Shown: positions 3,184 to 39,581, counted from the stretch's first letter. The stretch is 40,067 nucleotides of DNA from an uncultured Ignavibacteriales bacterium (GCA_964557855.1 CAZLBP010000016.1:41703-81769); one strand, 5' to 3'. Program-made: numbers and translations. Notes: generated by a model from the letters alone, not told the origin.

Positions 3184-3195
3184 GATATCCTCTTG

Positions 3196-3924
3196 TTAGC
3201 GCCCCACCGCGAGCCGGTCGATTAACAGCTCGGGCAGCTCGGCGGCTGTCATTTTCTTCTGCGCGGCGGCAATGTCGTACTCCACGCGATGAAAGCGGAT
3301 TGCCCTGGTATTCAAATCCATGGTTACGAAGCAAGCACGCGGATCATTATCGCGCGGCTGTCCCACCGAACCGACATTGACCAGGTAACGGCTTTCTTCA
3401 AAGGGATCGAAATCATGGGCGGTCTTTCGCTTGGGACGTGTGCCCGGTACTTCCGAGAAAATCTGGGGTATGTGAGTGTGACCATGAAAGCATATGGCGC
3501 CGGTCATATGTTCGAAGGCGATGTCGGCTTCGTCTGCGGTCAGTATGTAGTGCCAGTTTTCCGGTTCGAAGGGGGAGGCATGCACGAAAGTGATATCACC
3601 GAGCTCATGCACCATTTCGTACCGAGCGATCGTGGACAACTCCTGATCTGACAGAGACTCCCGAGTCCACTCGGCGGCAATACGGGCGACATTCGTATAG
3701 CCGCTCGTGGCCTCCAGGCCCAGGACAACCGATTCATGGTTGCCCATGAGTTTGACGGCGGCGTGTTTTTCGATCAGCTCCAGACAGGCGTGAGGATCAC
3801 ATCCATATCCGACGACGTCTCCGAGGCAATAGATTTCATCGACGCCGCTTTCTTCCACCGCGCGCAAAACGGCGGTCAAGGCTTCCTGATTCCCGTGGAT
3901 GTCAGAGAGCAAGGCTATTTTCAT
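3196..3924 (-). CDS. metallophosphoesterase (calcineurin-like/YfcE-type phosphodiesterase/phosphatase)
   Basis: MKIALLSDIHGN...LGDVVGYG...GNHE...GHTH motifs of the calcineurin-like metallophosphoesterase fold. Translationally coupled between the FHA gene and the kinase gene. Confidence 0.85.
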   Translation of the reverse strand: MKIALLSDIHGNQEALTAVLRAVEESGVDEIYCLGDVVGYGCDPHACLELIEKHAAVKLMGNHESVVLGLEATSGYTNVARIAAEWTRESLSDQELSTIARYEMVHELGDITFVHASPFEPENWHYILTADEADIAFEHMTGAICFHGHTHIPQIFSEVPGTRPKRKTAHDFDPFEESRYLVNVGSVGQPRDNDPRACFVTMDLNTRAIRFHRVEYDIAAAQKKMTAAELPELLIDRLAVGR

Positions 3925-4635
3925 CTATTCTCTGCCTTCAACATACTTGTATGTACTTTTGCCGACCGTAATGAGATCATCGTTTTTCAGCGTGCAGCGA
4001 TCAACCTGTTCACCATTGACTTTGACCTTGCCTTTCTTGCCCAAGTTTACCAATTGGTGGCCGCCGTTCTCTTTGACGATCTTGGCCTGGATGCCGGATA
4101 TGAAGAACCCTTTGGCGCGCACGTGAACGAACTTGGCCTTACCCAGGGTCGTCACGTCTCTTTCCAGGCGGTATTCGGAGAAGTCGGCGTTCTCTTCTCC
4201 CAGCAGTACGGAGCCGCCATACCGTTGTACAATCTCTCGTTCTATCTTGTCGTTTTCAAGAAGTTTTTTCTGAGCTTTCGTGTTCAGCACCATCGTGCCG
4301 TCGAAATTCGACGCATCTTCCTCAATCTGATCCGAGTTAGCGTTGTAGATGAGTTGGTACTTCCCGATGGTAATGGTGTCGTGGTTACGCAGGACTTCTT
4401 CATTGATTTTGCGTTGATTGACGAACGTGCCGTTGAGTGACTCGTTGTCAATGACGACGGCGGCATTGTCGTTGAATTCGATCAAGGCATGTTTTCGCGA
4501 AACACCGCGATTTTCGAGGACAATATCGTTGTCATTGGTACGTCCGATCGTGATCCGTTTCTTTTCCGTCACGATTCGTTCGATTACCTTGTTGTCGTAT
4601 TTGACAGTTATTTCCGCCATGGGGAATCCTTTCAC
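3925..4635 (-). CDS. tandem FHA-domain protein
   Basis: First FHA: ITIGRTNDNDIVLENRGVSRKHALIEF...NGTFVN. A second, degenerate FHA-like repeat lies in the C-terminal half. AAGGA RBS. First gene of the FHA-phosphoesterase-kinase operon. Confidence 0.85.
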   Translation of the reverse strand: MKGFPMAEITVKYDNKVIERIVTEKKRITIGRTNDNDIVLENRGVSRKHALIEFNDNAAVVIDNESLNGTFVNQRKINEEVLRNHDTITIGKYQLIYNANSDQIEEDASNFDGTMVLNTKAQKKLLENDKIEREIVQRYGGSVLLGEENADFSEYRLERDVTTLGKAKFVHVRAKGFFISGIQAKIVKENGGHQLVNLGKKGKVKVNGEQVDRCTLKNDDLITVGKSTYKYVEGRE

Positions 4636-13473: not shown

Positions 13474-14471
13474 CAAAGTCCAGGAACCGTTGCAGCATGT
13501 TCTTCATAGTGGCGGTGCTCTTACTTCCGCCAACGATAGCCCTCCGGGCCGCCGACGGTGACGGCGGTCAGCCGGGAGCGTTCTTCCGGATTCCGATCGG
13601 GGCTCGGCCCACGGCTATGGGCGGGGCCTATCTGGCGATCTCCAATGATGGCGCCGCGCCACTCTTTAATCCGGCCGGGGTCGTCTCTCTTAAGAAAAAG
13701 CTCTTCGCTACTTCGTATCGCGCCATGGATCTGGACCGCTCCCTCGGTTATATTACTTTGCTCGTACCGACCAGAGAAGAATCCACAATCGGTATCAACT
13801 GGCACTATTTCGGAGCCGGGGAGATAACGCTGCGCAACAGCGACGGGCGTGAAATTGGCCGGGAAGTCAGTTTCAATAATCACGATATCTCGATCCTTTT
13901 TGCCAAGCGATTCGAGGAGTACCTGTCGCTCGGTTTGCGGGCCGGTTACCTGTACTCGACCTTTGCCGAGATGTCAACCTTCTCCGTGGGAGTGGATGTG
14001 GGAGCCATGATCTATCTCAGCGGCTTCTACAACCGGGAGCGGCGAGATGAAGCCTTCATGCGCGATGTACAAATCGGACTGACGGTCAAAAATCTGGCCG
14101 CCACCTACCGGTGGGACACCGAAAAGTACAACGAGGAAATCGGCGGCGGCGACCTGAGCGTTGAGCAGGAAGATAAGATACCGGTTGAAGTGGGACTCGG
14201 TGTGTCCGCCCGGTTCCTGAAACGGAAGTTGCTGGTGGCAACGGACATTATCAAGAACGAAAAGCAGGATCCTTTCTTTCACGGCGGCGCGGAGTATTTC
14301 ATATCTCCGGAATTCGCCATACGCGGGGGTTATTCCGATGGTCGCTTCACGGCCGGCACGGGGTATGTCTTCACCATCGGCAACCAGGTTCTGGCCATCG
14401 ACTACGCTTTCGCCACCGACAAAGTCGATGAAGGCTCTGAACATATTTTCTCATTTGATTTGTTGTTCTGA
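13470..14471 (+). CDS. outer-membrane beta-barrel protein, PorV/PorQ/FadL-like (T9SS-associated family)
   Basis: Signal peptide, then the family signature GARPTAMGGAYLAISNDGAAPLFNPAG (G-x-R-x-x-AMGGA...NPAG). Ends in aromatic residues (FSFDLLF). 4-nt overlap with the upstream CTD-cargo gene. Confidence 0.65.
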   Translation: MTKSRNRCSMFFIVAVLLLPPTIALRAADGDGGQPGAFFRIPIGARPTAMGGAYLAISNDGAAPLFNPAGVVSLKKKLFATSYRAMDLDRSLGYITLLVPTREESTIGINWHYFGAGEITLRNSDGREIGREVSFNNHDISILFAKRFEEYLSLGLRAGYLYSTFAEMSTFSVGVDVGAMIYLSGFYNRERRDEAFMRDVQIGLTVKNLAATYRWDTEKYNEEIGGGDLSVEQEDKIPVEVGLGVSARFLKRKLLVATDIIKNEKQDPFFHGGAEYFISPEFAIRGGYSDGRFTAGTGYVFTIGNQVLAIDYAFATDKVDEGSEHIFSFDLLF

Positions 14472-14483
14472 AGGTAAACGGTG

Positions 14484-15386
14484 ATGAAACGAACTACTTG
14501 CGGTCTGGTTTTTATGTTCCTCCTGTCGATCGTTGCCAACTCCGCTTACGGTAGTGACGGTCTGTCAATGCTCAAAGTCGAAACCGGGGCCGAACCCTCG
14601 GGCATGGGCGGTGCCGTGGCGGCCGTGACCGGCTCGCCGGATTTGATTGTTTACAACCCGGCCGCAGCAGCCGACTTTAACAAGTTTCATGTCTCATTAG
14701 GGCACACCGCCTACTGGAACGACATTCGCATGGAGAGCGGCCACTTTGCGATGAAAGTATCACGGCGCGTGAACCTCCATGGCGGTATTCGTTATGCCGC
14801 CATCGACGAACTGGAGTTCCGAGGGGAAGTGGCCAGCGAGGAACCGCTGGGCTATTTTGATGCTCACGATATCTCCGCAAAAGCAGGGCTGGCTGTCGAA
14901 CTGACCGACTGGCTCTCAACCGGCTTCTCATTGGGGGCCGTGTCGGAGAAGATCGAGGCCTGGCACGGAGGTACTTTTGCCTTCGATTTCGGTCTACTGG
15001 CGCGAACGACGCAGAACGTGACTGTCGGTGCGGCAATCACTAACCTCGGCTCAGACTTCAGGCTCAGCAAGGCCGACAATACCGAGTCTCGGGACATAGC
15101 ATTGCCCACGACCTACCGGGTCGGGGCGGCGTATCAGTACGGCGAATACCTCGGGGCGGCCGATCTGGTTTATGTCGATGACGAGGCGCACGTTCACGTG
15201 GGCGCCGAAGCGGCGATCGAGGAGATCTTCGAGGTGCGGGCCGGTTACATGTTTAATTACGATATTAAGAACTTCACGGCGGGCGTATCGTTTACACGCT
15301 ACTCCATCAAGATCGATTATGCCTTTGTTCCCTTCGAAAAGGACCTGGGCACGTCGCATATGTTTAACGTGACGTTTAGTCTATAG
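14484..15386 (+). CDS. outer-membrane beta-barrel protein, paralog of the preceding PorV/PorQ/FadL-like gene
   Basis: Signal peptide, then GAEPSGMGGAVAAVTGSPDLIVYNPAA, the same signature as the upstream gene. Tandem duplication. Confidence 0.65.
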   Translation: MKRTTCGLVFMFLLSIVANSAYGSDGLSMLKVETGAEPSGMGGAVAAVTGSPDLIVYNPAAAADFNKFHVSLGHTAYWNDIRMESGHFAMKVSRRVNLHGGIRYAAIDELEFRGEVASEEPLGYFDAHDISAKAGLAVELTDWLSTGFSLGAVSEKIEAWHGGTFAFDFGLLARTTQNVTVGAAITNLGSDFRLSKADNTESRDIALPTTYRVGAAYQYGEYLGAADLVYVDDEAHVHVGAEAAIEEIFEVRAGYMFNYDIKNFTAGVSFTRYSIKIDYAFVPFEKDLGTSHMFNVTFSL

Positions 15387-27039: not shown

Positions 27040-30000
27040 CTAATCAGGGACGACGGGTCGACTCTGGAAGCAGGCCAGAAGTCGGTCAAAATCGGGCAGT
27101 TCCTTGAAATTGGCCAGGGCATGGTCATAGAAGTCACTGAGTTGATACTCCATAGTGCCGCAATTGAGCATGACGTAGGGAATCGCCGCTCGCCGGCACA
27201 GCTCGATCATGCGGTACAGCTCCACTTTCCCTGAGAACCGGGCGTCGCAGATAACAAGATCGGCCAGGGCGGCCAGTTCGCTCTTGACCTGGGTGATACT
27301 GTCGATCCAGTGCAGCTTCACGCCGGCATCGCAGGCGGGTGTGAAGTACTTGCTCAGAATCGACTTTTGCAGAGCAAAAATGAGGACCTGCTGACCCTCG
27401 GTGGGTGCGGTCGTGTTCGAGACCCGAACGGATTGTTCGCCGGCCACCGGGAGCGTCAGTGTGAACGTGGTGCCGACGCCCAGAAGAGATTCGACGGTGA
27501 GATCTCCGCCGTGGTCACGAGCAATGTTGCGGCAGATGGAGAGGCCCATACCGGTACCGACCAGCTCATCCTTGCCCCATACGCCCTTGGTGGAGAAGAA
27601 CGGGTCAAAGATGCGGGCGAGGTTCTTCTCCGGAATGCCGCCGCCCGTGTCTCCGACTTTGACTTGGACAGCATTCTTGTTGCTGGTGAGAGCGATGGTC
27701 ACGACGCCATCGGAGCGAATGGCGTGTCGGGCGTTTATGAGAAGATTCAAGAGCAGTTGCTGAATCTTGCTCGGTGAGATCTCGACCGGGGGAGGATTCT
27801 CGAAATACGTGACTATTTCTATGGACCGATCCTTCATATCCTGTTCGACGAGAGCTGTAGCTTTGGTAATGACTTGTGGCAGGTCCTGGCTGACCAGATC
27901 TTCAACTTTGGACGTGGAGTATGTGAGCAGTGACATCGCCACATCGTTGGCTTTCTCGCCAAGCTCAATGACTTTGGCGAGGGAATCCCGAGCGGCTCCG
28001 ACATCCTTGGTTCGGTCCATTTCCTCGACTGCGAACGAAGCGTTGCCGATTATGGCTCCGAGGTAGTTTTTGAATTCATGGGCCACCCCGGCCGCGAGCG
28101 TCCCGATAGCGGACAGTTTGTCGTTTTCGGCCAGCTTCAACTGTGTTTGCAGCTCCAGGCTGATATCTTCACCCAGTGACACGAAGTTTATGATATCGCC
28201 CTCTTCATTGAAGATGGGTGAAACGGTCTTGCGTTCCCAGTAGATTTCGCCGTTCTTTTTGCGATTCTGGATGCGTCCGTGCCAGGTATGCCCGGCTTTT
28301 ATCGTGCGCCACAGGTCTTCGTAGAGGTCCCGGTCGTTCCGCTCCGATTTCAATATTCGGGGGGTCTGCCCGAGCACTTCTTCCGGCGTATAGCCGGTGA
28401 TGGTGCAGAATCGAGGATTGACGAATTCAATATGTCCCTCGGCGTCGGTAATGCAGATTATGTTGGCGGATTGCGTGACGGCCGCGGACAGCTTGCGAAG
28501 CTGACTTTCCTTATCTCGAAGTTCCGTTATTTCCTGCCCGTAACAGTGGACAAATGCTTCACCGCCCACGGGATAGAACTCCCACCGGAACGTACGCATG
28601 GTGCGAGTCTGACGCTGAGCTGACACGGCTGTCTGTTTATCGATACATGTCTGAATACACGAGAGGTAGTCGGGCGGAAGGACCTCGTGGGCTTGTTCCA
28701 GCGGCACTCCGAGTGCGGGGAGTTGTCGGTGAAAAGCGGGATTGGCGTATTCTATGGCGCCGTCGGCAGCCAGCTTGAGGACGGAGTGCGGATTGTTTTC
28801 GGGAAAAGCGGCCAAGTGTCTGAGTCGCTCGTTGGTCCGCTTGCGGTTCGATATATCACGTGCAAAAGCGCAGGTGAAGGGCATCCCCGAGACCTCCGTG
28901 AAATGCTCGCTGGTTTCGACCGGAATACCCCGGCCGTCTTTGGCTCGCAGCGATGCTTCCCTGGTCAGAACGCCGCTGTTTTTGAGATTCTGCCGGTGTG
29001 CCGACCAGGTTTCCTCCGGCAGGGCAGGACAAATTTCGCACATGCGCATAGTCAGCAGTTCTTCACGGCTGTAACCGAGAAGGTTACAGGCAGTGTTATT
29101 CACGTAGATGAAACGCGCGTCCGAGCCCATCCAGAAGACGGCATCACCCGACTTCTCGCAAGTAAACTGGGACAATTGCAGCACTTCTTCCGCCTTCTTG
29201 CGCGCCGTTATGTTATCGATTATGCCGACAACATTCGAGATATCGCCGGTCGCGTTTCGAGCCGCCGACAAAACTACGGAACACCAGATGATATCGTTGT
29301 TCTGCGTGATGAGTCTCTTTTCCGTCCGGGCATGCGGTGAGTTTGCGCAGAAGAGCTCGTGCAGCAGTTCTTTGCTTTCCGGAACGTCATCGGGCGCCGT
29401 AATCTTGAGAATGGATTTGCCGATCAGTTCGTCTTTAGGGCAGCCCAGCCAGTTACACAGTGTCTCGTTGACCTCGACGAAGAGAAAATCGCGATCAATT
29501 GAGCAAACGCCGATACATGAGTTTTCAGCGAGCGCGAGGAAGTCTTCTTGAACCCGCTCAACGGGCTTTTCCTTTTTCGTCTCCGCGGCTTTCGGGGAAG
29601 GCGTGAGCGTAAGCAGAAAGGCCGCTTTATCCTGGTAGGTTATGGGCAATGTCTTGGTTTCGACATCAACCGGCTGGCCGTCGAAGCGGACCATTCGGCC
29701 GGGCAGCTGCTCGATGCTAAGGGTAGCAGCCGAAGCGGATTGAAGTCGTTCTAGGAAGGGTTCCTGGAGTTCGGGATGTACAAATCCGAGAATAGGCTTG
29801 TGTAGAAGATCTTCGGCTTCCGTCGCTCCCAGGAGGCCGATCGCCGCCGGATTAACGTAGATGATCTGTCCCTTGTCATGTATCAGCATGGCCTCCGAAG
29901 ACTGCCCGAGGAGGGCAATATACTGCTCATTCGTCTGTTGCAGTTCCTTTTCGTGCCGGACTTCGTCTCGGTCTCTCAGTTGCAGTTTGAGGAGGAGCAG

Positions 30001-30189
30001 CAGCATGAACAGAAGGAGTGCAATAACCAGCCACAGGGCGTTTTGAGACGTAAACTCCCTAACGCTGCCGTCAAACGGTTTCAGTTCGACAGACAACCAT
30101 CCGACTCCGACCAGGAGGCCGATTACTCCAACGGCTTTGGCGCTGCTCAAAACGTACCGGAACAGCGGCTTATCAACGAGTTTGATCAT
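27040..30189 (-). CDS. membrane-anchored multi-PAS sensor histidine kinase with C-terminal degenerate receiver-like domain
   Basis: Two N-terminal TM helices and at least four PAS/PAC modules. HisKA H-box AAGVAHEFKNYLGAI. HATPase_c region GTGMGLSICRNIARDHGGDLTVESLLGVGTTF. A ~120-aa C-terminal tail resembles a receiver (DLVICD) but lacks the N-terminal acidic pair. Confidence 0.85.
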   Translation of the reverse strand: MIKLVDKPLFRYVLSSAKAVGVIGLLVGVGWLSVELKPFDGSVREFTSQNALWLVIALLLFMLLLLLKLQLRDRDEVRHEKELQQTNEQYIALLGQSSEAMLIHDKGQIIYVNPAAIGLLGATEAEDLLHKPILGFVHPELQEPFLERLQSASAATLSIEQLPGRMVRFDGQPVDVETKTLPITYQDKAAFLLTLTPSPKAAETKKEKPVERVQEDFLALAENSCIGVCSIDRDFLFVEVNETLCNWLGCPKDELIGKSILKITAPDDVPESKELLHELFCANSPHARTEKRLITQNNDIIWCSVVLSAARNATGDISNVVGIIDNITARKKAEEVLQLSQFTCEKSGDAVFWMGSDARFIYVNNTACNLLGYSREELLTMRMCEICPALPEETWSAHRQNLKNSGVLTREASLRAKDGRGIPVETSEHFTEVSGMPFTCAFARDISNRKRTNERLRHLAAFPENNPHSVLKLAADGAIEYANPAFHRQLPALGVPLEQAHEVLPPDYLSCIQTCIDKQTAVSAQRQTRTMRTFRWEFYPVGGEAFVHCYGQEITELRDKESQLRKLSAAVTQSANIICITDAEGHIEFVNPRFCTITGYTPEEVLGQTPRILKSERNDRDLYEDLWRTIKAGHTWHGRIQNRKKNGEIYWERKTVSPIFNEEGDIINFVSLGEDISLELQTQLKLAENDKLSAIGTLAAGVAHEFKNYLGAIIGNASFAVEEMDRTKDVGAARDSLAKVIELGEKANDVAMSLLTYSTSKVEDLVSQDLPQVITKATALVEQDMKDRSIEIVTYFENPPPVEISPSKIQQLLLNLLINARHAIRSDGVVTIALTSNKNAVQVKVGDTGGGIPEKNLARIFDPFFSTKGVWGKDELVGTGMGLSICRNIARDHGGDLTVESLLGVGTTFTLTLPVAGEQSVRVSNTTAPTEGQQVLIFALQKSILSKYFTPACDAGVKLHWIDSITQVKSELAALADLVICDARFSGKVELYRMIELCRRAAIPYVMLNCGTMEYQLSDFYDHALANFKELPDFDRLLACFQSRPVVPD

Positions 30190-30291: not shown

Positions 30292-31623
30292 CTAACGGAC
30301 GAACGGTCCCCAGACCGGGTTGGAGCAGTTCTGGGAACGAGTGAGGCGTCGCTGCTTACGTCCGGTCAGGTCCATGGTATAGATATCCTTACCGCCCAGG
30401 CGAGTCGAGGAGAAAATGATGTGCTTCCCGTCCGGTGAGAAATGGGGATTCTCGTTGGCGCCGACTTCCGTCAGCACTCGATAATCCCGACCGCTGGTGT
30501 CGATTGACGCAATATCGAAGCGCCCGAATTTGGTCCGGCTCACGAACGTTATTCGATCCCCCCGTTTGGACCAGACCGGCGAATCGTTGTAACCCCCTTC
30601 GTACGTCAGTCGCCTGACGTTAAGGCCATCGCTGTCCATGATGTATAGTTGCGGCTGACCGGTACGGTCAGAAGAGAATACGATTCGGTCACCGTCAGGC
30701 GACCATGAGGGCGCGGAATCGATTGCCCGGTGTCTGGTGAGTCGTTTGATTATATTCCCCTTCAGATCAAGAACGTAGATTTCGGAGTTGCCGTCCCTGG
30801 TGAGCACGCAAGCGACCTTGTTCCCGTCCGGAGAGACCGCGGGCGCCGCCGCCAGACCGGTGAAGCTGCCGATGCGTTCGATAGCTCCCGTTTGAACATT
30901 GACCTGGAAGAGCTGTGGGTTGCCCTCGAGATACGAGGTAAAGTAGATATGCCGGCCGTCCGGCGCATACTGCGGGGAGAGGTTCAAGGTGCCGGTATTA
31001 GTCAGCCGCCGTTCATTGGCCCCGTCGTAGTCGGCCACGAATATCTCTTTGGCGTTATCTATGGCTTTGATATAGGCAATTTGGGTGCGAAAGATTCCCC
31101 GCTCGCCGGTCAGGAAATGGACCAGCTCATCGGAAACGTTATGGGCGATTTCGCGCCAGTAACTCTTGTGATATTCCACGTTGCCTTTGGCCAGTTGCTG
31201 CTGGGTGCGGGTGTCATAAAGCCGCCAGCGGGCGCGCAGGTTGGCCCCGGGAAATTCGGCTTCCAGCCGGACCAGGTGGTGGGCGCCGAGACGTTCCCAG
31301 CCCATAAGGTCCAGTTCGAAGATTTCGTAGAGCTGCAGGTAGAACGAATCGATGGGTACGAGATCAAAGTGGGCATAGAAATCGATATCATTTTGGATGA
31401 CGTTGGTCACCCAGCGCATCATCGAGGAATCATCGGGAGATATATACTCCGAGCCGACGTATCTCATGTCCTCCACGCCGATGGGGGTCGGCACGAAATC
31501 ACCCGGCCGGAGCGTATCGAAGAAGATATTGCGAACGCCCGACTGTCCGGCCTGGGCCGCGGCCGTGACGGGAAGAACGGTCAGAGCGATGAGAAGCGTA
31601 CTGATGAGGTTTGATTTCTTCAT
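30292..31623 (-). CDS. tolB: TolB periplasmic beta-propeller protein
   Basis: Signal peptide, TolB N-terminal domain, then repeated propeller blades (PDGRHIYFTS, PDGNKVACV, PDGDRIVFSS, PDGKHIIFSS). Confidence 0.85.
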   Translation of the reverse strand: MKKSNLISTLLIALTVLPVTAAAQAGQSGVRNIFFDTLRPGDFVPTPIGVEDMRYVGSEYISPDDSSMMRWVTNVIQNDIDFYAHFDLVPIDSFYLQLYEIFELDLMGWERLGAHHLVRLEAEFPGANLRARWRLYDTRTQQQLAKGNVEYHKSYWREIAHNVSDELVHFLTGERGIFRTQIAYIKAIDNAKEIFVADYDGANERRLTNTGTLNLSPQYAPDGRHIYFTSYLEGNPQLFQVNVQTGAIERIGSFTGLAAAPAVSPDGNKVACVLTRDGNSEIYVLDLKGNIIKRLTRHRAIDSAPSWSPDGDRIVFSSDRTGQPQLYIMDSDGLNVRRLTYEGGYNDSPVWSKRGDRITFVSRTKFGRFDIASIDTSGRDYRVLTEVGANENPHFSPDGKHIIFSSTRLGGKDIYTMDLTGRKQRRLTRSQNCSNPVWGPFVR

Positions 31624-32364
31624 TTATCCTGGACCTACTTTAATGGGCAATGTAATCCCGATTATCTCGTCACGAAACTGATCCGGCAGGGGGGGAAAAG
31701 GAGCCGACCGTTCGATGGCGTCAAGGCAAATTTGATCGAATTCCGGAATCCCGGATGGTCTTTCGACTCGCAGTTCGATTACTCTGCCCGATCTGATCAC
31801 CTGGAAGTAGACGACGCACACCAGCGTGCCGTCATAGAGGACCGTGTTACGGAAATTCGATGATATCTTGTTGAAGGCCTGCGTGAACCAGTATGGGTAA
31901 TCAAAGGTGGCATTGTCGATAGTGGCGCCGGCGAAGGGGGAACCGCCGCCGCCGGGAGTCTCGATCTCCTTGGAATCATCTCTTTCAGCCCCGCCCGTCT
32001 TGTTGTCTTTCAGCACGTTCTTCTTCTTTGGTTTTGGTTCCGGCGGCGGTTCCGGTTCAGGTTCCGGTTCGGGCTCCGGCTCCTCCTCGATGACTGCCTC
32101 TTTCATGGTAGTAGGGTCGGAGATCGAAATATCAGGAACTTCGTCCTGCATGGCCGCTTCCGGCACCGGAACCGGTTCCAGCGCGACCGGTTCGTCAACA
32201 GCGATTTCAGCGGGCGCCGTGAGCTGAACCCGGATGATATCGTCATAGCTGAGCTGGCTGCGAACATCGAAGGGAGAAGACAGCATGGTGGCCAGAACAA
32301 TGAGCAAATGAAATACGGCTGAAAAGATGAATTCCCTTTTCATGGAATCAGCGATTCCTCCCAC
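31624..32364 (-). CDS. TonB-family energy transducer (TonB C-terminal domain; occupies the TolA position)
   Basis: N-terminal TM anchor, a Pro/Glu-rich spacer (EPEPEPEPEPEPPPEPKPKKK), and a C-terminal TonB_C-like fold (VLYDGTLVCVVYFQVIRSGRVIELRVERPSGIPEFDQICLDAI). Confidence 0.75.
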   Translation of the reverse strand: MGGIADSMKREFIFSAVFHLLIVLATMLSSPFDVRSQLSYDDIIRVQLTAPAEIAVDEPVALEPVPVPEAAMQDEVPDISISDPTTMKEAVIEEEPEPEPEPEPEPPPEPKPKKKNVLKDNKTGGAERDDSKEIETPGGGGSPFAGATIDNATFDYPYWFTQAFNKISSNFRNTVLYDGTLVCVVYFQVIRSGRVIELRVERPSGIPEFDQICLDAIERSAPFPPLPDQFRDEIIGITLPIKVGPG

Positions 32365-32782
32365 CGGTTTGTCCCTGCTGAACGGGCGCCGTGACCAGGC
32401 CTATATTTTCAATTCCCATGACTTTCATGCGGCCGATGACTTCAATAGCGACGCCGTACGCGACTGCCGAATCCCCCCGCAGATATACCGAGCTCGTGTT
32501 CCTGGCGCGCATTTCCTTTTCGAGAGCGGTCTCGAGGTTTTCCAGGCGGGACCAGACGTCATTGATGTAAATACCGCCCTTGCTGTCGATGGTAACGACC
32601 ACGCCCTCCGCCTCTTCTTCGATGGCGGCGGCTTTCGTCTTGGGCAAGTCGACCTCAATGCCCGATTGCAACAGGGGGGCGGAGATCATGAAGATGATCA
32701 GGAGCACCAGGACCACATCCACCAGATTGGCGATGTTGATATCGGACATGGCGCCGTATGTGCGACGACGTCTAAAACGCAT
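32348..32782 (-). CDS. exbD: ExbD/TolR biopolymer transport protein
   Basis: The pattern INIANLVDVVLVLLIIFMISAP (N-terminal TM plus conserved Asp) is typical of ExbD/TolR. Confidence 0.85.
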   Translation of the reverse strand: MRFRRRRTYGAMSDINIANLVDVVLVLLIIFMISAPLLQSGIEVDLPKTKAAAIEEEAEGVVVTIDSKGGIYINDVWSRLENLETALEKEMRARNTSSVYLRGDSAVAYGVAIEVIGRMKVMGIENIGLVTAPVQQGQTGGRNR

Positions 32783-32784
32783 GG

Positions 32785-33498
32785 TCAGATTTCCTTCTTG
32801 GCACGAGCGAGGAATTCAAGGATGAAATTGTGGCTGAAGTCGTTTATCTGTTTGGTGCGATTGTTGGCCCAGTTAAAAGCTATTACCGCCGGGATGGCGG
32901 CCCCGAGCCCGACAATCGTGGCCAGCAGGGCCTCGGCGATGCCGGGCGCAACTACTGCTAGTGATGCCGAACCCCGTTCCCCGATCGACCAGAAGGAATC
33001 CATGATCCCAACTACCGTTCCCAGAAGTCCCATAAACGGGGCGGAATTGCCGGTTGAGGCGAGGAATATCACTTTGCGCTCCAGTTGGCCCATTTGCTCA
33101 GAAAGAGCCTTTTCCATCGACATTTCAACGATTTCCAAATCATCCTGGTCCAGGGGACGCTGTTTTTCCTGAAGGCCGCCGCCTTCGTTCTTCCACTCCT
33201 GCAGTTGTCCCAGTTCGGTGTAACCGGCAATGAAAACATGCGATACCGGAGCGCGTGCGTGTGATTTAGCTTGTCCCAGACACTCGGAGAGGGTACGCGC
33301 TCGGCGAAAAGTCTGGATAAATCGTTGATTATCCTCGTCCACTGCTTTGAATTGTCGCCATTTGGCGAAAATGATCGCCCATGACATCAATGACATAAAC
33401 ACAAGTACCAGCAATATGAAGACACCGAAAGCGGAGGACTGCCCAATGATCTGCCAGATTGAACCAGAGAAGATGTTTGCGATAATCACTTGTTCCAT
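32785..33498 (-). CDS. exbB: MotA/TolQ/ExbB proton-channel family protein
   Basis: Three TM helices. Conserved region APFMGLLGTVVGIMDSF...AEALLATIVGLGAAIPAVIAFN is typical of ExbB/TolQ. Confidence 0.85.
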   Translation of the reverse strand: MEQVIIANIFSGSIWQIIGQSSAFGVFILLVLVFMSLMSWAIIFAKWRQFKAVDEDNQRFIQTFRRARTLSECLGQAKSHARAPVSHVFIAGYTELGQLQEWKNEGGGLQEKQRPLDQDDLEIVEMSMEKALSEQMGQLERKVIFLASTGNSAPFMGLLGTVVGIMDSFWSIGERGSASLAVVAPGIAEALLATIVGLGAAIPAVIAFNWANNRTKQINDFSHNFILEFLARAKKEI

Positions 33499-33778
33499 AC
33501 GTGTTCTACACCCATATCAGCGAAAACGTTTAGAAGCTCAAAAAGTTGTCAGTTTCTGCGCCACTCGACGCACACCACGTCAGTAAACACAGCCAACAAA
33601 CCTAGAGGCATTGTGTTAAGAGGTCAACAAAAACCGAGAGGGCCGAACGTGAATCCGCTGTCACCTGGTACTTCCCGTATACGGTACAATTTTCGAACAT
33701 TATAGTTGATTTGAGATCTATATTGCTTATTCTGGCTGACGTTTGAATAAACTGATTTACCGTAAGGAGGAATTGTAC

Positions 33779-33991
33779 ATGATGAGACCCGTAATTGCGC
33801 TGGTGATCATGCTTCTGGCCGCCTCATTAATGTTTGGCTGCGGCCAAAAGGAAGAACCGGAGACCGGCAAGACGCCGGTTGAAGAAAAGACTGCTGAAAT
33901 GGCGGATACCACTCGCATGGATACAGCGATGATGGATACCGGCATGGCTGATACGGCGATGATGGACACGACCGGTCATTCCGGCTACTAG
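33779..33991 (+). CDS. small Met-rich lipoprotein (70 aa) with MDTxMMDT repeats
   Basis: Strong RBS taaggagg 8 nt upstream of the ATG at 33779. Signal peptide with a lipobox (LMFGC). C-terminal repeats MDTAMMDTGMADTAMMDT. Followed by an intrinsic terminator. Confidence 0.7.
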   Translation: MMRPVIALVIMLLAASLMFGCGQKEEPETGKTPVEEKTAEMADTTRMDTAMMDTGMADTAMMDTTGHSGY

Positions 33992-34020
33992 TATTTGTCC
34001 GAGTAGTAAATATCAAAAAA

Positions 34021-34050
34021 AGCCTCCCGCTACGGCGGGAGGCTTTTCTT
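34021..34050. terminator. rho-independent terminator (agcctcccgc-tacg-gcgggaggct plus T-tract), bidirectional between convergent genes
   Basis: A perfect 10-bp GC-rich stem is preceded by A7 and followed by ttttctt. It sits 30 nt after the lipoprotein stop and ~195 nt after the stop of the minus-strand 34245 gene. Confidence 0.85.
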
Positions 34051-34244
34051 GTGAGCTTCTTAAAAATGCCTCATTCGTCTGTTGGAGCAGGTCTTGTGCG
34101 CTGCAGGCGGAAGCGACCTGCTGCTCTTACTTTTCCACAGGCTGCACGTCAAGTTATCCGCTACAGGCGGACCGACACGTGATTACGACCTGAAACAGCA
34201 TTATACCGGGTTCTTCGGCGCTACCGTATGAGCAGATATGCGGA

Positions 34245-35372
34245 TTATCCTTCAATCATTTCAACATTGGCTCGCGGGACGATGGCCTTTTCTCCACCAG
34301 CGAATTCGACTTCCAGGACCCTGGCTTTGGATTCGGACTCGAGGATTGTCAGGAGCGCCGGCAGATCGGTAACGGTGCCGAGTCTTCCGAAGTAGGGGTG
34401 TCTGATGACCCGAACCGGCGAGCCGACTTGAAGACCGCCGACGGCCGTTGCAGCCGTGGTGTCGTCGTCTTTCGAGACGTTCTCGGATAGTATGACGACT
34501 TCCGGCCGAATGACACCGGCCCTAATCTGGGTCGCACCGTTGATGCAGGCCAGAACACCTTCGTTGGCCTTCATCAGCTCAAAGGTGTGTTCAGCCATGT
34601 TTATTTGTCCGAAGCCTTCGGTTACAACGAGGGTACAGCCGATATCTTCAGAGCCGGTGATGGCGACGCCGATATCGTAACCGAGGAAATCACGCAGGTC
34701 CTTGTCGTCAAAGCCTCCGACCACAATCCCTTTGACACCGACTTCAATCGCTTTCCTCAAGGCGGCCGCCGTCACCAATGAGCCGCCGACGATGACGCAG
34801 CCTTTATGATCCGGGGAGATGGCCTTGTCATCGAGAACCGTCGAGTTCTCCGTTACAACGACTTTGATCTCTCCATATGTCTCACCGCCTATCCCGAAAA
34901 TCGCCTGGACAAAGCCCGCGTGGCAGGATACGACGACGCCTTCGCTGGGAATGACTTCAGTGACTTCGCCCCGTACGTACGCCGTCACTTCCACCGGAAT
35001 AGGGCGACCGCGCTGCAGGACCTGGCCGGTGATACTTGAGATTGACTCGATCGTGCCGTCGATCGTGGCCGGGCACGAGCTGGAGAACCACTTGATAAAC
35101 GACTTCTTCAGGGCGATAGGCTCACCTTCTTTGATGCGATCCCCTTCCTTCTTGAGCATTACCATGTCCAGGTCTTCGGGTGGCACCCCCAGTTTGTTCG
35201 CGACGTTCAGGGGTTCCACCGTACCCGGCAACTCCGTTCGAGCTACCACGTCGTCCGGTTCAACCTTATCGCCGACTTTGACGACCACGTCTCCCTTGAG
35301 GGGAAGAATGCGTCGTTTTTCTAACAACAGTCTTTCGGTGACCTTCAGGCCGGGAGTATATGCGTGCGCCAT
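34245..35372 (-). CDS. conserved hypothetical protein (375 aa), Gly-rich alpha/beta fold of unknown family
   Basis: Long intact ORF. Last gene of the three-gene minus-strand operon. Motifs GCVIVGGSLVTAAALRKAIEVGVKGIVVGGFDD. No family assigned. Confidence 0.6.
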   Translation of the reverse strand: MAHAYTPGLKVTERLLLEKRRILPLKGDVVVKVGDKVEPDDVVARTELPGTVEPLNVANKLGVPPEDLDMVMLKKEGDRIKEGEPIALKKSFIKWFSSSCPATIDGTIESISSITGQVLQRGRPIPVEVTAYVRGEVTEVIPSEGVVVSCHAGFVQAIFGIGGETYGEIKVVVTENSTVLDDKAISPDHKGCVIVGGSLVTAAALRKAIEVGVKGIVVGGFDDKDLRDFLGYDIGVAITGSEDIGCTLVVTEGFGQINMAEHTFELMKANEGVLACINGATQIRAGVIRPEVVILSENVSKDDDTTAATAVGGLQVGSPVRVIRHPYFGRLGTVTDLPALLTILESESKARVLEVEFAGGEKAIVPRANVEMIEG

Positions 35373-35385
35373 AAATAACCCAATT

Positions 35386-36159
35386 TCATGTATTTCGGTG
35401 CGTTGGTTTCTTGCGATAGCGGTAGATCACGTACACGACAATGAGGAACACCGCCACCGCCGGGATAATCCAGGTCGTGACGGAACCATTGCGAGCTTCT
35501 TCCCGCAGCGCTTCATTGATATCAGCAACTTCCACTTCTTCTGTGGGGAGAACATTATCTACGTTGCCGTAGGTGAAGGTTTCGATGACCTGGTTCATAA
35601 TGTCTTTGCTCACCGCGAACAGGGAATCGGGGGAATAGAAATAGAAGGAGGCCAGTCCCTGTTCGAAGAACTTCATCATGAGCAGGTGTTTCTTGGTGAC
35701 TTCCACCCCATCGCTGATTTCGCTCATAACGGTAGCGAGTTTGCGCTCACTGTCGTAAACCGGGGTGTTGGATTCGAGGTTTGCCATAAAATCGGCTACC
35801 GGATAATACTTGATACCTTCGCCGAACGATTGTCTGAGCGTATTGAGCGTCGAATCGATTTCGTGTTGTGTGAAGGCGTCGCTGGAATCGACGGTGAGTA
35901 TGAAGTACGGTCCCCGGTAGAACGGCACCGACCCTTCTTTGTAAAAGCCGGCTTCGTAGTCGAATAAAAGATCACCGGCGCCTCGCTGTTCGAGGAAAAC
36001 GTCGAGCAGCAGGTAATCCAGTTGCTCCCAGTCGGGCGGGTAGCTGAAGTAGAAGTTGCCTTTTAGGCTGACATAGTAGTTGGTGCTGTCCGAGGCAAAG
36101 GCGGAGACGGCCAAAAGCAGGATCAACAGGATTGTGCAACAGGTGCTTTTCATGATCAT
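35386..36159 (-). CDS. membrane-anchored exported protein of unknown function (signal peptide plus C-terminal TM anchor)
   Basis: N-terminal signal peptide (LLILLLAVSAFASDS) and a C-terminal TM followed by a basic tail (IIPAVAVFLIVVYVIYRYRKKP). 4-nt overlap with the upstream MutL-like gene. Confidence 0.6.
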   Translation of the reverse strand: MIMKSTCCTILLILLLAVSAFASDSTNYYVSLKGNFYFSYPPDWEQLDYLLLDVFLEQRGAGDLLFDYEAGFYKEGSVPFYRGPYFILTVDSSDAFTQHEIDSTLNTLRQSFGEGIKYYPVADFMANLESNTPVYDSERKLATVMSEISDGVEVTKKHLLMMKFFEQGLASFYFYSPDSLFAVSKDIMNQVIETFTYGNVDNVLPTEEVEVADINEALREEARNGSVTTWIIPAVAVFLIVVYVIYRYRKKPTHRNT

Positions 36160-38012
36160 CCGAAGAGTCGTTCCTTGGGATAGATGTCCAGATTCGTCAT
36201 CCAGGTTTTCAGGTGGGAGACCCGCTCGTCTTCAGAGAGCGTCGACAGATCGAACGGCCGCCCGCGACCGTCGAGAATTATGCCCACCACTCCTCCGTGC
36301 AGGGTTGTTTCGAGCTTGTTGCCCTTACCGGCGCCGACGTCGAACTGACGTTCCGGTTCGAGAACCGCTTTAACCTTGAGCGGCAAGCCGTCATCACCCA
36401 CGCCGAGTTCGTATTTCTTCATCTCCAGGCTGTTCAATGTTCCGGTGACCTGACCATCGGGCAAATCAATTCGGTATTTCATGATGGGTCCCGGTTTCTT
36501 GATCGTCCCGGAGGGGGCGACACAGGTGCCCAGATGAATGAGGCAGTCTTTTTCGAAGACCTCTGTAGCGGCTTTGGCTTGCACCTCGGTCAACACACCC
36601 AGCTGCGGCATCATGAAAATGGAGTCCACGGCGAGGCGAGTGACACCCTCGGGCAGGAAGGCATCGATCAACATCATGGCGGATTGCTGCCGGCGGGGTG
36701 CGTGCGAGAGCACTCCACCCGAGCCGATCAGCATATTGAGCGACATCATATTTACAATTGTAGCGCCGGAGCCGGATTGCTCGAACGCTTCGGCGATAGT
36801 GCGCTGTTGCTGGATGCCCTTCAACACAGTGGCGAAATTCTTGTGCTGAATGAAAGCCAGCCGCAGAGCCTCCTTGGCGATAGCCTGTTCGAAAATCAGT
36901 TCTTCCATCGATTGCGGAATCGTGGTCGGGCGGATCATCTTGTTCTTGACCCGATTGCGCAGATCCCTTTCGTCCATTTTGAACGGCGCCCAGCGCATGA
37001 CCATTGGCAGGGTAGCTTCCGCGAACACATTGGAAATGGAGTACGACATACCGAGGTTGGCGGAGACGGTACGGTTGAATACACCCTCGCCGCCGCCGGG
37101 ACGAAACACGGAAAACACATCGGTCGTCGCCCCGCCGATATCGACTCCGACCGCTTCGATATTGTACTGGTCGGCAATGGTCTTGATAATGAGTCCCACG
37201 GCGCCCGGGGTGGGCATGATGGGGGCGTCGGCCCAGGACATGAGCTTGTTGTACCCGGGTGCTTGCGCCATAACGTGTTCCATGAATAGTTCGTGTATTT
37301 CCTCACGGGCCGGGGCCAGGTTCTCTCGCTCGAGAATCGGTCGCAGGTTTTCAACCGTTTTCAGGTCGACTTTCTTGGCCAGTGTTTGATCGATATTCTG
37401 ACGAGCATTCTTGTTGCCGGCATAGATGACGGGCAGTTTGTAGGATGACCCCAGCCGGGGGCGGGGATCAGCGGCTGCGATCAATTCCGCCAGTTCGACC
37501 ACGTGCGTAGTCGTGCCGCCGTCAATGCCGCCGGAGAGAAGGATCATATCCGGGCGGAGATGCCGGATGCGCTCGATTTGCTGGTGCGGTTGGCGTTTGT
37601 CGTTGGAGGCGATGACGTCCATGACAATCGCACCGGCGCCCAGCGCGGCGCGCTCGGCCGATTCGGCCGTCATGGACCGCACCACCCCAGCCACCATCAT
37701 CTGCAGGCCGCCGCCGGCCGACGAGGTAGATATGAACACATCGGTTCCGGTTTTTCCGTTGGACGGATTGATGATCTTATTCTCTTCGTCCAGCAGCTTT
37801 CTCCCCGACAGCTCTTCCACTTCCTGAACGGCATTGAGCACACCCATCGTCACGTCTTCAAACGGGGCTTCAACCGTGGTCGGAGCCTCGCCGCGTGTGA
37901 TGAGGCGGTACTCGCCGTTGACATACTCGATCAGGATGGCCTTGGTCGTAGTGGAACCACAGTCGGTCGCCAGAATAACTTTAATATCTTTGGGGTTATC
38001 GAATTTTGCCAT
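36156..38012 (-). CDS. MutL(GlmL)/EutA-like ASKHA-fold ATPase (mutase-reactivase family homolog), 618 aa
   Basis: N-terminal phosphate-1 motif ILATDCGSTTTKAIL and internal VGVDIGGATTDVFSV match the paired motifs of the GlmL/MutL-EutA family (compare EutA GIDLGTTTTQ / IDIGGGT). It is ~150 aa longer than typical MutL. Confidence 0.5.
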   Translation of the reverse strand: MAKFDNPKDIKVILATDCGSTTTKAILIEYVNGEYRLITRGEAPTTVEAPFEDVTMGVLNAVQEVEELSGRKLLDEENKIINPSNGKTGTDVFISTSSAGGGLQMMVAGVVRSMTAESAERAALGAGAIVMDVIASNDKRQPHQQIERIRHLRPDMILLSGGIDGGTTTHVVELAELIAAADPRPRLGSSYKLPVIYAGNKNARQNIDQTLAKKVDLKTVENLRPILERENLAPAREEIHELFMEHVMAQAPGYNKLMSWADAPIMPTPGAVGLIIKTIADQYNIEAVGVDIGGATTDVFSVFRPGGGEGVFNRTVSANLGMSYSISNVFAEATLPMVMRWAPFKMDERDLRNRVKNKMIRPTTIPQSMEELIFEQAIAKEALRLAFIQHKNFATVLKGIQQQRTIAEAFEQSGSGATIVNMMSLNMLIGSGGVLSHAPRRQQSAMMLIDAFLPEGVTRLAVDSIFMMPQLGVLTEVQAKAATEVFEKDCLIHLGTCVAPSGTIKKPGPIMKYRIDLPDGQVTGTLNSLEMKKYELGVGDDGLPLKVKAVLEPERQFDVGAGKGNKLETTLHGGVVGIILDGRGRPFDLSTLSEDERVSHLKTWMTNLDIYPKERLFG

Positions 38013-38245
38013 GTATCCAACCTGTTATCTTGCAACAGACCTTTCTTCAAAATCGGAAACTCGTTTGTTCTGAAGCCCGACGCTTATCCGCCTGATAAAA
38101 TAGACTTCAGCTTATTTCTTCCCGGGCGGATTTCCGCCAAGACCGCAAGTATAATAACTCCGTTCGGAATTGTAAACAGGGATTTTTCAGGCGAAACAGC
38201 CCGATTTTGCTGCCGATGCGCCGTCAAGAATCCCGAGGCGGTCCC

Positions 38246-38528: not shown

Positions 38529-39581
38529 ATGACAGATAAGAGAAATGACATATCGATTAAGCTGACCGCCGAAGTCAGCTGCGCCGGTTGAGCCTCGAAA
38601 CTGGCGCCAAAGGTTTTGGCGGAAGCGCTCAAAGGATTGCCGGTCACGGCGCACCCGCAACTTCTGGTCGGCTACAACACGGCCGACGATGCGGGGGTGT
38701 TTCAGATCGCCGATGATCTGGCGCTGGTGCAGACGGTGGACTTTTTCCCGCCGATAGTGGATGATCCATACTATTTCGGGCAGATCGCGGCGGCCAATGC
38801 CATGTCCGACGTATATGCCATGGGCGGGCGGCCGCTGACTGCGCTCAATATCGTCTGCTTCCCGGGCAACATGCCGCCGGAGATTCTTACGGAAGTCCTG
38901 AAGGGCGGCGCGAAGAAGGTCGAAGAGGCCGGGGCGTTTGTGGTCGGGGGACACTCGGTCAAGGACAAGGAGCTTAAGTACGGCATTTCCGTGACGGGGA
39001 TAGTCCATCCTGACCGGATATTCACAAATGCCGGGGCGCGGCCGGGCCATATCCTCTATCTCACCAAACCGCTCGGCACGGGGCTGATAACGACCGGGAT
39101 CAAGCGCAATGCGGTCGGCGATGAATTGATTCGCCTGGTGACGGTCCAGATGACACAATTGAACAAGAACGCCGCCGAAGCGATGGTCAAATGCGGGGCG
39201 CACGCCGCGACTGATATAACCGGCTACGGGCTGCTGGGGCATGCTTTTGAGATGGCGGAAGCATCGGGGGTGACGATCCGCTTCGAGGCCGACCTAATAC
39301 CACTGATGCCTCAGGCGACGGAACTGGCGGCGGCGGGGATGATCCCCGGCGGGGCGAATGCCAACCGGGATTTTCTCGAGGGGCACATCCGGATAGCATC
39401 TTCGGTGGACAAAAATGTCGAGCATGTATTATACGATCCGCAAACATCGGGCGGCCTGCTGATCGCCATCCCCGAAGAGCGAGCGGAGCAGCTTGAGCGC
39501 GAGTTCGCGGAGAAAAAGGTATTCGGGCAGCGGGTGGGGGTGGTGCAGGAAGAATCGGGCGTGGGGATTGTGGTGGGGTGA
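38529..39581 (+). CDS. selD: selenide, water dikinase (selenophosphate synthetase) SelD, predicted selenoprotein with in-frame UGA (Sec) at 38592..38594
   Basis: After the TGA the ORF is clear SelD (VGYNTADDAGVF, DFFPPIVDDPYYFGQIAAANAMSDVYAMGG, AIR-synthase-like fold). In frame upstream, an ATG at 38529 gives MTDKRNDISIKLTAEVSCAG-U-ASKLAPKVLAEAL. This aligns with E. coli SelD [25 protein letters not shown] and places the TGA at the catalytic Cys17 position. Confidence 0.8.
38595..38630 (+). promoter_or_regulatory. candidate bacterial SECIS stem-loop immediately 3' of the selD UGA
   Basis: 13 nt after the TGA lies cgccaaa-GGU-uuuggcg, a 7-bp stem with an apical GGU. This is consistent with the position and loop G/U requirement of bacterial SECIS elements. 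Confidence 0.45.

Follow-up and report, generated by a model that had tools for sequence, protein, structure and literature searches.

A MutL-family ASKHA protein and its three-domain partner form a conserved pair often encoded beside DUF6754 membrane cassettes

An operon in DNA from an uncultured Ignavibacteriales bacterium (GCA_964557855.1 CAZLBP010000016.1:41703-81769) encodes a protein with the motifs of the MutL/GlmL group and, as the original prediction had pointed out, a B12-dependent enzyme was not detected in any other large ORF of the window (the whole stretch of 40,067 nt that was analysed), which raises the question of what system this protein serves. The three predicted ORFs of 618, 257, and 375 aa are present on the minus strand; together with two candidate transcription signals they are as follows.

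A618: 36156..38012, minus strand; long-form MutL-family ASKHA (actin-fold) ATPase, 618 aa
B257: 35386..36159, minus strand; predicted lineage-specific exported single-pass membrane protein, 257 aa, encoded between the A618 and C375 genes
C375: 34245..35372, minus strand; partner of A618 with three domains, 375 aa
Promoter-like site: 38148..38176, minus strand; TTTACA-17 nt-TATACT, ~135 nt 5' of the A618 start codon
Intrinsic terminator: 34014..34051, minus strand; 17-bp stem (9 G-C pairs), 4-nt loop, and T-run, closing the operon

The anticipated 4-nt overlap between A618 and B257 takes the form of an ATGA stop/start, and 13 nt separate B257 from C375. The promoter-like site is the top sigma-70-like consensus match of the region (10/12); as such matches are no more numerous there than in shuffled sequence, we base the promoter call on the ~60 nt around the site, which is the sole upstream stretch conserved in related loci (L006, L018, L011, and L003), and consider it the putative promoter of the operon. 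An A-run precedes the terminator stem on the minus strand, giving a T-run on the plus strand, and the terminator is predicted to be bidirectional, common to the operon and a convergent small lipoprotein gene (33743-33991). A repeat search of the flanking intergenic regions identified nothing besides this terminator.

A search with Pfam MutL (PF13941) confirmed that A618 belongs to the MutL/GlmL superfamily of ASKHA proteins, which scored 430.7 bits (cut-off 27) and aligned over aa 13–490 to model positions 1–450 of 450; beyond this ASKHA core lies a C-terminal domain of ~128 aa that is clade-specific. Both motifs named in the original prediction, DCGSTTTK (aa 17–24, D17–K24) and DIGGATTD (aa 291–298, D291–D298), were found, and along with the adenosine motif SGGVL (S431–L435) they show at least 97% identity across 81 homologs from several phyla, being among the 258 of 618 positions conserved to this degree. 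With this site intact, A618 would be expected to bind, and probably to hydrolyse, ATP. The 119 other homologs listed, mostly from Zixibacteria, are 84–90% identical to A618, and those in Planctomycetota-type loci 61–69%. While A618 shares with GlmL and Or-4 (PF13941, TIGR01319) the core of ~450 positions and the phosphate-1, phosphate-2, and adenosine motifs, it adds the C-terminal domain to the 448–459 positions of their models, is typically paired or fused with C375 and often located beside membrane cassettes, and reaches only about half of their equivalog cut-offs (236.8 bits against 475 for GlmL, NF040745; 219.3 against 600 for the GlmL-related ornithine degradation protein Or-4, NF040744). 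It also scores below the subfamily cut-off of TIGR01319 glmL_fam (169.8 against 204.05), and these scores rule out A618 as an ortholog of GlmL or Or-4. Pfam and PDB-sequence searches gave no sequence match to the EutA/DdrA families, and PDB profile and sequence searches identified no relative of solved structure; an AF2 model of A618 (pLDDT 50), built from a shallow alignment of sequences with 84–90% identity, was discarded.

The original prediction had called for a check on whether the triad of genes is conserved, and comparison with other genomes shows that it is not: B257 is present in just 43 of 80 loci, with 25–49% identity, and other genes or none occupy the same place in the remainder. 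Judged by sequence and gene order, what is conserved is a two-protein ATPase module, A618 with C375. A618 is directly 5' of C375 on the same strand in 74 of the 80 C375-centred loci, and this adjacency spans Zixibacteria, Calditrichaeota, CSSED10-310, Pirellulales, and Spirochaetia bins; one of the six non-adjacent loci is masked sequence, and C375 occurs without A618 nearby in a few lineages (WOR-3 and one Zixibacteria clade). In addition, the two proteins are fused into single chains of 995 and 1003 aa in two separate clusters from different lineages, one of which comprises eight or more full-length members from independent contigs (up to 97 kb). The pair was identified in at least 565 species representatives, and 763 clusters (50% identity) match at E ≤ 1e-30.

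The original view of B257 as exported and membrane-anchored is consistent with its two hydrophobic segments (aa 5–23 and aa 227–245), which predict a signal peptide, a periplasmic domain of ~200 aa, and a C-terminal TM with a basic tail after it. We found 16 homologs with 38–49% identity and no matching family in Pfam, NCBIfam, or PADLOC, and B257 is a fast-evolving protein restricted to one Zixibacteria clade. The identities of A618 (84–90%) and C375 (71–85% among its homologs), against the 38–49% of B257, point to purifying selection and are counted in favor of the module proposed below.

C375 had been described as a Gly-rich alpha/beta protein; it contains 10.9% Gly and is modelled as beta-rich plus alpha/beta. 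Its domains are, in order, a barrel-sandwich hybrid of the RnfC_N/NqrA_N/biotinyl-like type, a swivelling beta/beta/alpha domain, and a KOW/SH3-like barrel, a combination that is previously unseen. RnfC_N matched 30 of 63 C375-family members (best E-value 8e-7) and NQRA_N nine of the 63, the window protein itself being sub-threshold (16.1 against 25.6). RnfC and NqrA are peripheral subunits of the Rnf and Na+-NQR membrane complexes, and we count the RnfC/NqrA type of the N-terminal sequence in favor of an association of C375 with a membrane complex; unlike these proteins, C375 has no RnfC NADH/FMN-binding, SLBB, Fe-S, or NqrA C-terminal Pfam domains, and no redox cofactor motifs were seen. The central domain has the swivelling beta/beta/alpha fold of the PEP-utilising-enzyme mobile domain, as in PTS EI, PEP synthase, and pyruvate kinase, where it forms the mobile phosphotransfer domain; RraA/HMG-aldolase enzymes have this fold as well. 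Since no His, Cys, or Lys is invariant across the 63-sequence family alignment, C375 is neither a phosphohistidine carrier nor a biotinyl/lipoyl carrier, and there is no conserved Lys for modification at a hairpin tip; as no His is even nearly invariant, a phospho-relay via C375 was rejected. The polar residues Q156, T281, R284, and R289 are invariant family-wide, and E164, E252, Q282, and E291 nearly so. A KOW profile matches eight of the 63 members and matches to NusG/Spt5 are weak; the NusG/Spt5 identity suggested by the JGI name of some homologs was set aside, C375 having no NGN domain and just the KOW-like C-terminal barrel. A Foldseek search of C375 against the PDB gave no significant global match.

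The genes that recur with A618 and C375 in other genomes are those of a four-gene membrane cassette, F3-F8-F7-F9, of invariant order and in one to three tandem copies, along with small genes.

F3: DUF6754 protein with a periplasmic FN3 domain, a TM, DUF6754 (cytoplasmic by charge), and a second TM
F8: protein with ~6 TM segments
F7: bitopic protein with a periplasmic domain
F9: multi-TM protein
F14, F15, and F16: small accessory genes, two or three, upstream

This cassette lies within 10 kb in 33 of the 80 C375-centred loci, divergent upstream or co-directional downstream, and is not within that distance in over half of them. In the reverse search, A618 and/or C375 were present in 21 of the 37 DUF6754-centred metagenome loci that extend 3.5 kb or more upstream; as the other 16 have neither nearby, the adjacency is frequent and not obligatory, and part of it could be caused by the shared ancestry of related genomes (inherited synteny). 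In marine loci, F15-F14-A-C-F3-F8-F7-F9 is a recurrent operon, in part with C375 proteins that carry a Planctomycetota label, and in a close relative (89% identity) three DUF6754 cassettes are encoded divergently from A618. Scans with Pfam, NCBIfam, and PADLOC identified only DUF6754 among the cassette and small proteins, with no defence-system matches in PADLOC, and PDB profile searches found nothing for F7, F8, and F9, and F3 only via its FN3 domain. While the sizes of the cassette subunits resemble those of NqrB/D/C/E, no cassette protein has similarity to the Rnf/Nqr Pfam families (RnfD/E/A/G, NqrB-E), and F3, with its FN3 domain and three hydrophobic segments, is unlike NqrB or RnfD in topology; on both grounds a divergent Nqr/Rnf set was rejected. 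The idea that B257 is a divergent F7 was likewise dropped, as hhalign comparisons among F2, F3, F7, F8, F9, and F14-16 revealed no relationships. Neither the DUF6754 cassette nor F14/F15/F16 is found in the window. The claim of an uncharacterised system stands, with conserved partners that lay outside the view of the original prediction.

Based on these associations, we propose, with a probability of about one half, that A618 and C375 are two subunits of a cytoplasmic nucleotide-driven module serving an undescribed inner-membrane envelope machine. C375, with its barrel-sandwich, swivelling, and KOW-like domains, would be a cofactor-less adaptor or transducer, and the module would most likely act on or with the modular F3-F8-F7-F9 complex, possibly in direct contact, accompanied by the small F14/F15/F16 proteins, as the energising or assembly ATPase of a cell-envelope machine. 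In this genome the pair would be transcribed with B257 from its own promoter, and the cassette would have to lie outside the window.

The family name invites another reading, in which A618 is a reactivase or chaperone like GlmL, EutA, or DdrA with an adenosylcobalamin-dependent client elsewhere in the genome, and we regard this as highly improbable. EutA and DdrA/DdrB are ASKHA ATPases, and DdrA combines an actin fold with a swivelling beta/beta/alpha domain, the same combination as in A618 plus C375; however, the DdrA swivelling domain is an insertion in one chain, whereas here it belongs to a second protein or, in the fusions, follows the ATPase on its C-terminal side, and is flanked by barrel-sandwich and KOW-like domains. 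As the match to DdrA is also weaker than those to RraA or EI, this likeness is at the level of fold only. The scores of A618 under every NCBIfam GlmL, Or-4, and glmL_fam cut-off argue against a reactivase, as does its genomic setting: an Rfam scan of the window identified no family, cobalamin riboswitches included, no B12 enzyme is among the conserved neighbor families of ~160 related loci, glmS/glmE and oraS/oraE never adjoin A618 in the related loci examined, ethanolamine ammonia-lyase and diol dehydratase are absent from the window ORFs and the conserved neighbors, and the constant partners are instead C375 and membrane proteins. The selD gene is divergent from the operon, as had been noted (its start is at 38529 and codon 21 is an in-frame UGA), but the linkage is not conserved, a tblastn search having found no selD in 160 related loci; upstream in relatives with 88–89% identity there is instead a peptidase S41 gene or DUF6754 cassettes, and the adjacency to selD is accidental. 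We thus reject a role for the module as a B12-mutase reactivase; the operon has no B12 partner in the window, as originally predicted, nor in the ~160 related loci.

Could the pair be a soluble metabolic enzyme that uses ATP (e.g., as a kinase, carboxylase, or hydrolase of the hydantoinase/oxoprolinase kind), in which the C375 swivelling domain shuttles an intermediate and the cassettes are a substrate or product transporter, or unrelated? The fold of the central C375 domain, known from such enzymes as PTS EI, PEP synthase, pyruvate kinase, and RraA/HMG-aldolase, is in its favor, the invariant polar residues of C375 may mark a defined site, and A618 has weak similarity to Hydantoinase_A (PF01968, 17.9 against 22.9) and Hydant_A_N (PF05378, 16.7 against 25.2). 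These are sub-threshold matches to short fragments; the refutation named with the original prediction, a reassignment of A618 to an unrelated ASKHA family such as the hydantoinases together with a lack of synteny, fails, the genes being syntenic elsewhere. We consider a soluble enzyme unlikely: C375 lacks an invariant His, Cys, or Lys, the conserved partners are nearly all membrane proteins with no further soluble enzyme gene conserved nearby, and an identity of 84–90% among the listed, mostly Zixibacteria, homologs would not usually be expected of a peripheral catabolic enzyme. With its actin fold and very strong conservation, A618 could also be a polymer-forming or scaffold protein (cf. FtsA, MreB, PilM) in cell division or envelope organisation, with C375 as adaptor, and the operon directly adjoins the downstream Tol-Pal cluster (tolQ-tolR-tolA-tolB-pal-ybgF) in the clade of the window and lies amid housekeeping genes in other clades, e.g., rpsF-ssb-rpsR-rplI. 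The Tol-Pal adjacency is, however, limited to Zixibacteria genomes that are related, in which the synteny may have been inherited, the Pfam FtsA, MreB, and PilM models gave nothing above noise with A618, and a review counts the MutL family with those enzymes of the actin superfamily that do not polymerise (PMC5597319), making a scaffold still less probable than a soluble enzyme.

Returning to the envelope module, an analogy may be drawn with the ECF-type ABC transporters. These use a shared energising module for modular transporters, and a single cytoplasmic ATPase module encoded beside one to three paralogous membrane cassettes would be a comparable arrangement, the difference being that the ATPase here is actin-fold and not P-loop ABC. 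It is a tentative, rather doubtful extension of our proposal that A618–C375 drives an envelope machine of a new class, the DUF6754 complex being energised by an actin-fold rather than a P-loop ATPase and possibly acting as a primary transporter or a lipid-linked-glycan flippase. The glycan idea comes from a hint, namely that genes for polyprenyl-phosphate glycosyltransferases (GT2) and genes of the GT-C/PMT type separate or flank A618 and C375 in several separate lineages.

The searchable literature on DUF6754, PF13941/ASKHA, GlmL, TIGR01319, and Zixibacteria with glutamate mutase yielded nothing relevant except the actin-superfamily review (PMC5597319), and we found no solved structure or literature mention for A618, C375, or the cassette components. 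Public records list A618 homologs as "glutamate mutase L" or "methylaspartate mutase", and those of C375 sometimes as NusG or glycine-cleavage H protein. With the former names, reconstructing the metabolism of Zixibacteria, Calditrichaeota, Planctomycetota, and further uncultured lineages would falsely point to B12-dependent glutamate fermentation. The A618–C375 pair ranks with the most conserved proteins of the genomes that carry it, making it a candidate core system. It also shows that membership of the Pfam MutL family does not imply a B12 enzyme, a point of relevance to GlmL itself, whose putative role as a "reactivase" is still inferred.

Reading of the ORFs in the window placed an operon of three head-to-tail genes on the minus strand at 34245-38012, all three as originally predicted, with the expected 4-nt overlap of A618 and B257 (the stop of one and the start of the other share ATGA) and a gap of 13 nt between B257 and C375. 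The operon, its signals and the genes 3' of it are as follows:

38176-38148, minus strand: sigma-70-like site (TTTACA-17-TATACT), the best match of the region, ~135 nt 5' of A618
36156-38012, minus strand: A618, MutL-family ASKHA (actin-fold) protein, 618 aa
35386-36159, minus strand: B257, exported single-pass membrane protein, 257 aa
34245-35372, minus strand: C375, three-domain partner of A618, 375 aa
34051-34014, minus strand: hairpin terminator (17-bp stem and T-run), end of the operon
33743-33991, plus strand: small lipoprotein-like gene, 82 aa
32785-33498, minus strand: tolQ, in the Tol cluster (30292-33498) immediately 3' of the operon
32348-32782, minus strand: tolR/exbD, Tol cluster
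31624-32364, minus strand: tolA/TonB-like, Tol cluster
30292-31623, minus strand: tolB, Tol cluster

Relatives keep only one stretch of the region upstream of A618, and the sigma-70-like site falls inside it, while the terminator is common to the operon and the convergent small gene. The 3' untranslated region of C375 (34052-34244) carries an 18-nt motif twice (TTGTGCGCTGCAGGCGGA and TTATCCGCTACAGGCGGA, 60 nt apart between stop codon and terminator), two-copy matches often being due to chance. The small lipoprotein-like gene has no Pfam family and belongs to our family F17, present in 12 related loci; it lies on the opposite strand between C375 and tolQ, a position kept in the window's clade, and its product has a Met/Asp/Thr-rich repeated tail (MADTTRMDTAMMDTGMADTAMMDTTG) whose Met-rich repeats might bind a metal.

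The assignment of A618 to the MutL family proved right at the superfamily level, because Pfam MutL (PF13941) matches it end to end (430.7 bits); profiles of the hydantoinase family, the alternative named at the time, scored 17.9 and 16.7 bits, both below threshold. Against NCBI-curated models of the MutL type, A618 scored under the cut-offs for GlmL (236.8 against 475), Or-4 (219.3 against 600) and the TIGR01319 subfamily (169.8 against 204.05), and it continues past these 448-459-position models in a C-terminal extension of ~128 residues. Judged by membership tests, A618 is a MutL-family protein at the level of fold and family, outside GlmL, Or-4, EutA, DdrA and hydantoinase, and no solved-structure relative was detectable by sequence. 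Its homologues carry public names such as 'glutamate mutase L' and 'methylaspartate mutase', which are misleading for this clade. Across 81 sequences, other phyla and fusion proteins included, identity reaches at least 97% at 258 of the 618 positions; since DCGSTTTK, DIGGATTD and SGGVL are among them, the nucleotide site is very likely intact, and we infer that A618 hydrolyses nucleotide.

A scan with a C375 profile, one genome per species, gave at least 565 confirmed relatives; adjacency statistics refer to the top 80 loci by score in each scan, not to a random sample, and taxon labels, taken from metagenome bins, are possibly unreliable (many loci are labelled 'Ignavibacteriales'). A618 precedes C375 on the same strand in 74 of these best 80 C375 loci; one of the six exceptions is masked sequence, and the rest, in WOR-3 bins and one Zixibacteria clade, have C375 alone. 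The proposed three-gene unit thus held elsewhere for A618 and C375 but not for B257, homologues of which stand between the two in 43 of the 80 and match at only 25-49% identity, in contrast to 84-90% for A618 (to 119 other homologues among the matches listed, mostly Zixibacteria) and 71-85% among homologues of C375. A618 and C375 are immediate neighbours in ~20 of the 80; in other loci the insert is a GT2 polyprenyl-phosphate glycosyltransferase-like gene, the same with two PMT_2 genes, an HD protein with a 184-aa protein, a DinB-family protein or an 8xMP protein. Glycosylation genes (GT2 polyprenyl-phosphate-sugar synthase-like, PMT_2 of the GT-C type and, in WOR-3 bins, a TMEM260-like O-mannosyltransferase) recur at the pair in separate lineages, either between the two genes (loci L039, L043, L052 and L065) or directly 5' of C375 (L078 and L082); they may reflect a link to periplasmic glycosylation or just an insertion hot spot.

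An exhaustive profile search recovered 763 clusters of C375 relatives (50% identity) at E <= 1e-30, two of which are natural fusions of ~1000 aa, a full A618 followed by a full C375. At least eight full-length members of one fusion cluster stand on independent contigs, the other cluster is from Ca. Ozemobacteraceae, and in both the N-terminal half resembles A618 in its scores against the GlmL models. Fusions together with synteny across phyla are strong evidence that A618 and C375 work jointly as one complex.

The full architecture of C375 has no counterpart among solved structures. The protein's C-terminal domain is a KOW/SH3-like barrel, likened to NusG and Spt5, and RnfC and NqrA resemble its first domain only; domain matches among 63 diverse family members were to RnfC_N (30), Biotin_lipoyl (24), NQRA_N (9) and KOW (8). 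Residues R21, G135, Q156, G160, G167, G253, G255, T281, R284, G286, R289, P290 and E371 are invariant family-wide. As no His or Lys is invariant in the family, a role as phosphohistidine carrier or as biotinyl/lipoyl carrier was ruled out. Model confidence is low in two conserved loops, 236-240 and 283-287, which would fit their becoming ordered upon partner binding. Public records call some homologues 'NusG' and others 'glycine cleavage system H lipoate-binding protein', again misleading for this clade, and a longer variant (~450-475 aa; P0307, P0389 and several further cluster entries) has the N-terminal barrel-sandwich region duplicated, with two matched stretches.

The divergent arrangement with selD is real in the window, where selD occupies 38529-39581 on the plus strand (the listed ORF, 38616-39581, is its C-terminal part only) and presumably encodes a selenocysteine-containing SelD, given an in-frame UGA at codon 21 (38589-38591, motif SCAG-U-ASKL). 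The linkage is not kept: selD was found in none of 160 related loci, and close relatives (88-89% identity) have at its position either a peptidase S41 gene or a set of three DUF6754 cassettes; this marks the upstream side of A618 as a rearrangement breakpoint, with no functional signal in the selD adjacency. Downstream, the Tol cluster of relatives runs on into pal, ybgF and ligA, whereas the window has a large PAS histidine kinase (27040-30189) next after tolB. The other large ORFs (signalling proteins, an ETF subunit, an isocitrate/isopropylmalate-type dehydrogenase, AspRS, PhoH, PorV-like proteins and transport proteins including an amino-acid permease and a CorC/CNNM-type transporter) include no B12 enzyme, bearing out the original prediction, and an Rfam scan of the window found no family. 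Names of homologues place the window in Zixibacteria. A signalling cluster at 682-4635 (minus strand) comprises a CHASE2-Ser/Thr protein kinase (833 aa), a metallophosphoesterase and an FHA-domain protein. At 10864-15386 (plus strand) an 869-aa protein with a C-terminal FlgD-Ig-like domain precedes two paralogous genes, the first PorV-like by Pfam and the second, with no Pfam match of its own, joined to it by sequence clustering (family F30); F30 members also lie a few genes 3' of C375 in L039, L043 and L053.

Clustering of all ORFs in the best 80 C375 loci gave three sets of recurrent neighbours. The first, in 33 of the 80 and usually in two to three tandem copies, is a four-gene membrane cassette placed divergently upstream of A618 or co-directionally downstream of C375: F3 (~415 aa; signal, FN3 domain confirmed by search against the PDB, TM, DUF6754 domain (Pfam PF20539, 420 bits), TM), F8 (~215 aa, ~6 TM segments), F7 (~280 aa, N- and C-terminal TM flanking a ~220-aa domain) and F9 (~210 aa, 4-6 TM segments). 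In other clades the small genes F16 (72 aa), F15 (150 aa, a hydrophobic segment and possible PH-like domain) and F14 (140 aa) lie upstream of A618, usually directly. The third set is the downstream Tol-Pal cluster of the window's own clade, which may be plain inherited synteny. Cassette genes and F14/F15/F16 are absent from the window. In the reverse test, a DUF6754 profile against metagenome contigs, the order F3-F8-F7-F9 was invariant across the 80 best-scoring loci, A and/or C stood next to the first cassette in 21 of the 37 with at least 3.5 kb upstream, and the operon F15-F14-A-C-F3-F8-F7-F9 recurred; some of the distant C375 proteins there are labelled Planctomycetaceae or Phycisphaerales.

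The data support a cytoplasmic module with two subunits, an actin-fold ATPase and an adaptor, that is very strongly constrained and linked in function to a modular membrane complex. We give a probability of about 0.5 to A618-C375 serving an undescribed envelope machine as the ATPase that energises or assembles it; within F3, the DUF6754 domain, predicted to be cytoplasmic from charge distribution, would be the natural docking candidate. A soluble ATP-dependent enzyme using the swivelling domain is a distinctly weaker candidate, and an actin-like scaffold with a role in division or at the envelope is less probable again. DdrA shares the actin fold and swivelling domain with the pair, with a different arrangement and no sequence relation. 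That A618 is a B12 reactivase with its client encoded far away is very improbable: the equivalog tests failed, no context examined holds a B12 enzyme, and its company is constantly membrane proteins. Known defence systems gave no matches.

The 'glutamate mutase' family appears in a review (PMC5597319) as one of the actin-superfamily enzymes that do not form polymers, and our literature searches gave no mention of DUF6754, of TIGR01319 or of this long form of the family. The ATPase family of A618 is known, while its partner, C-terminal domain and genomic system are undescribed; if the membrane coupling is real, the whole system would be new.
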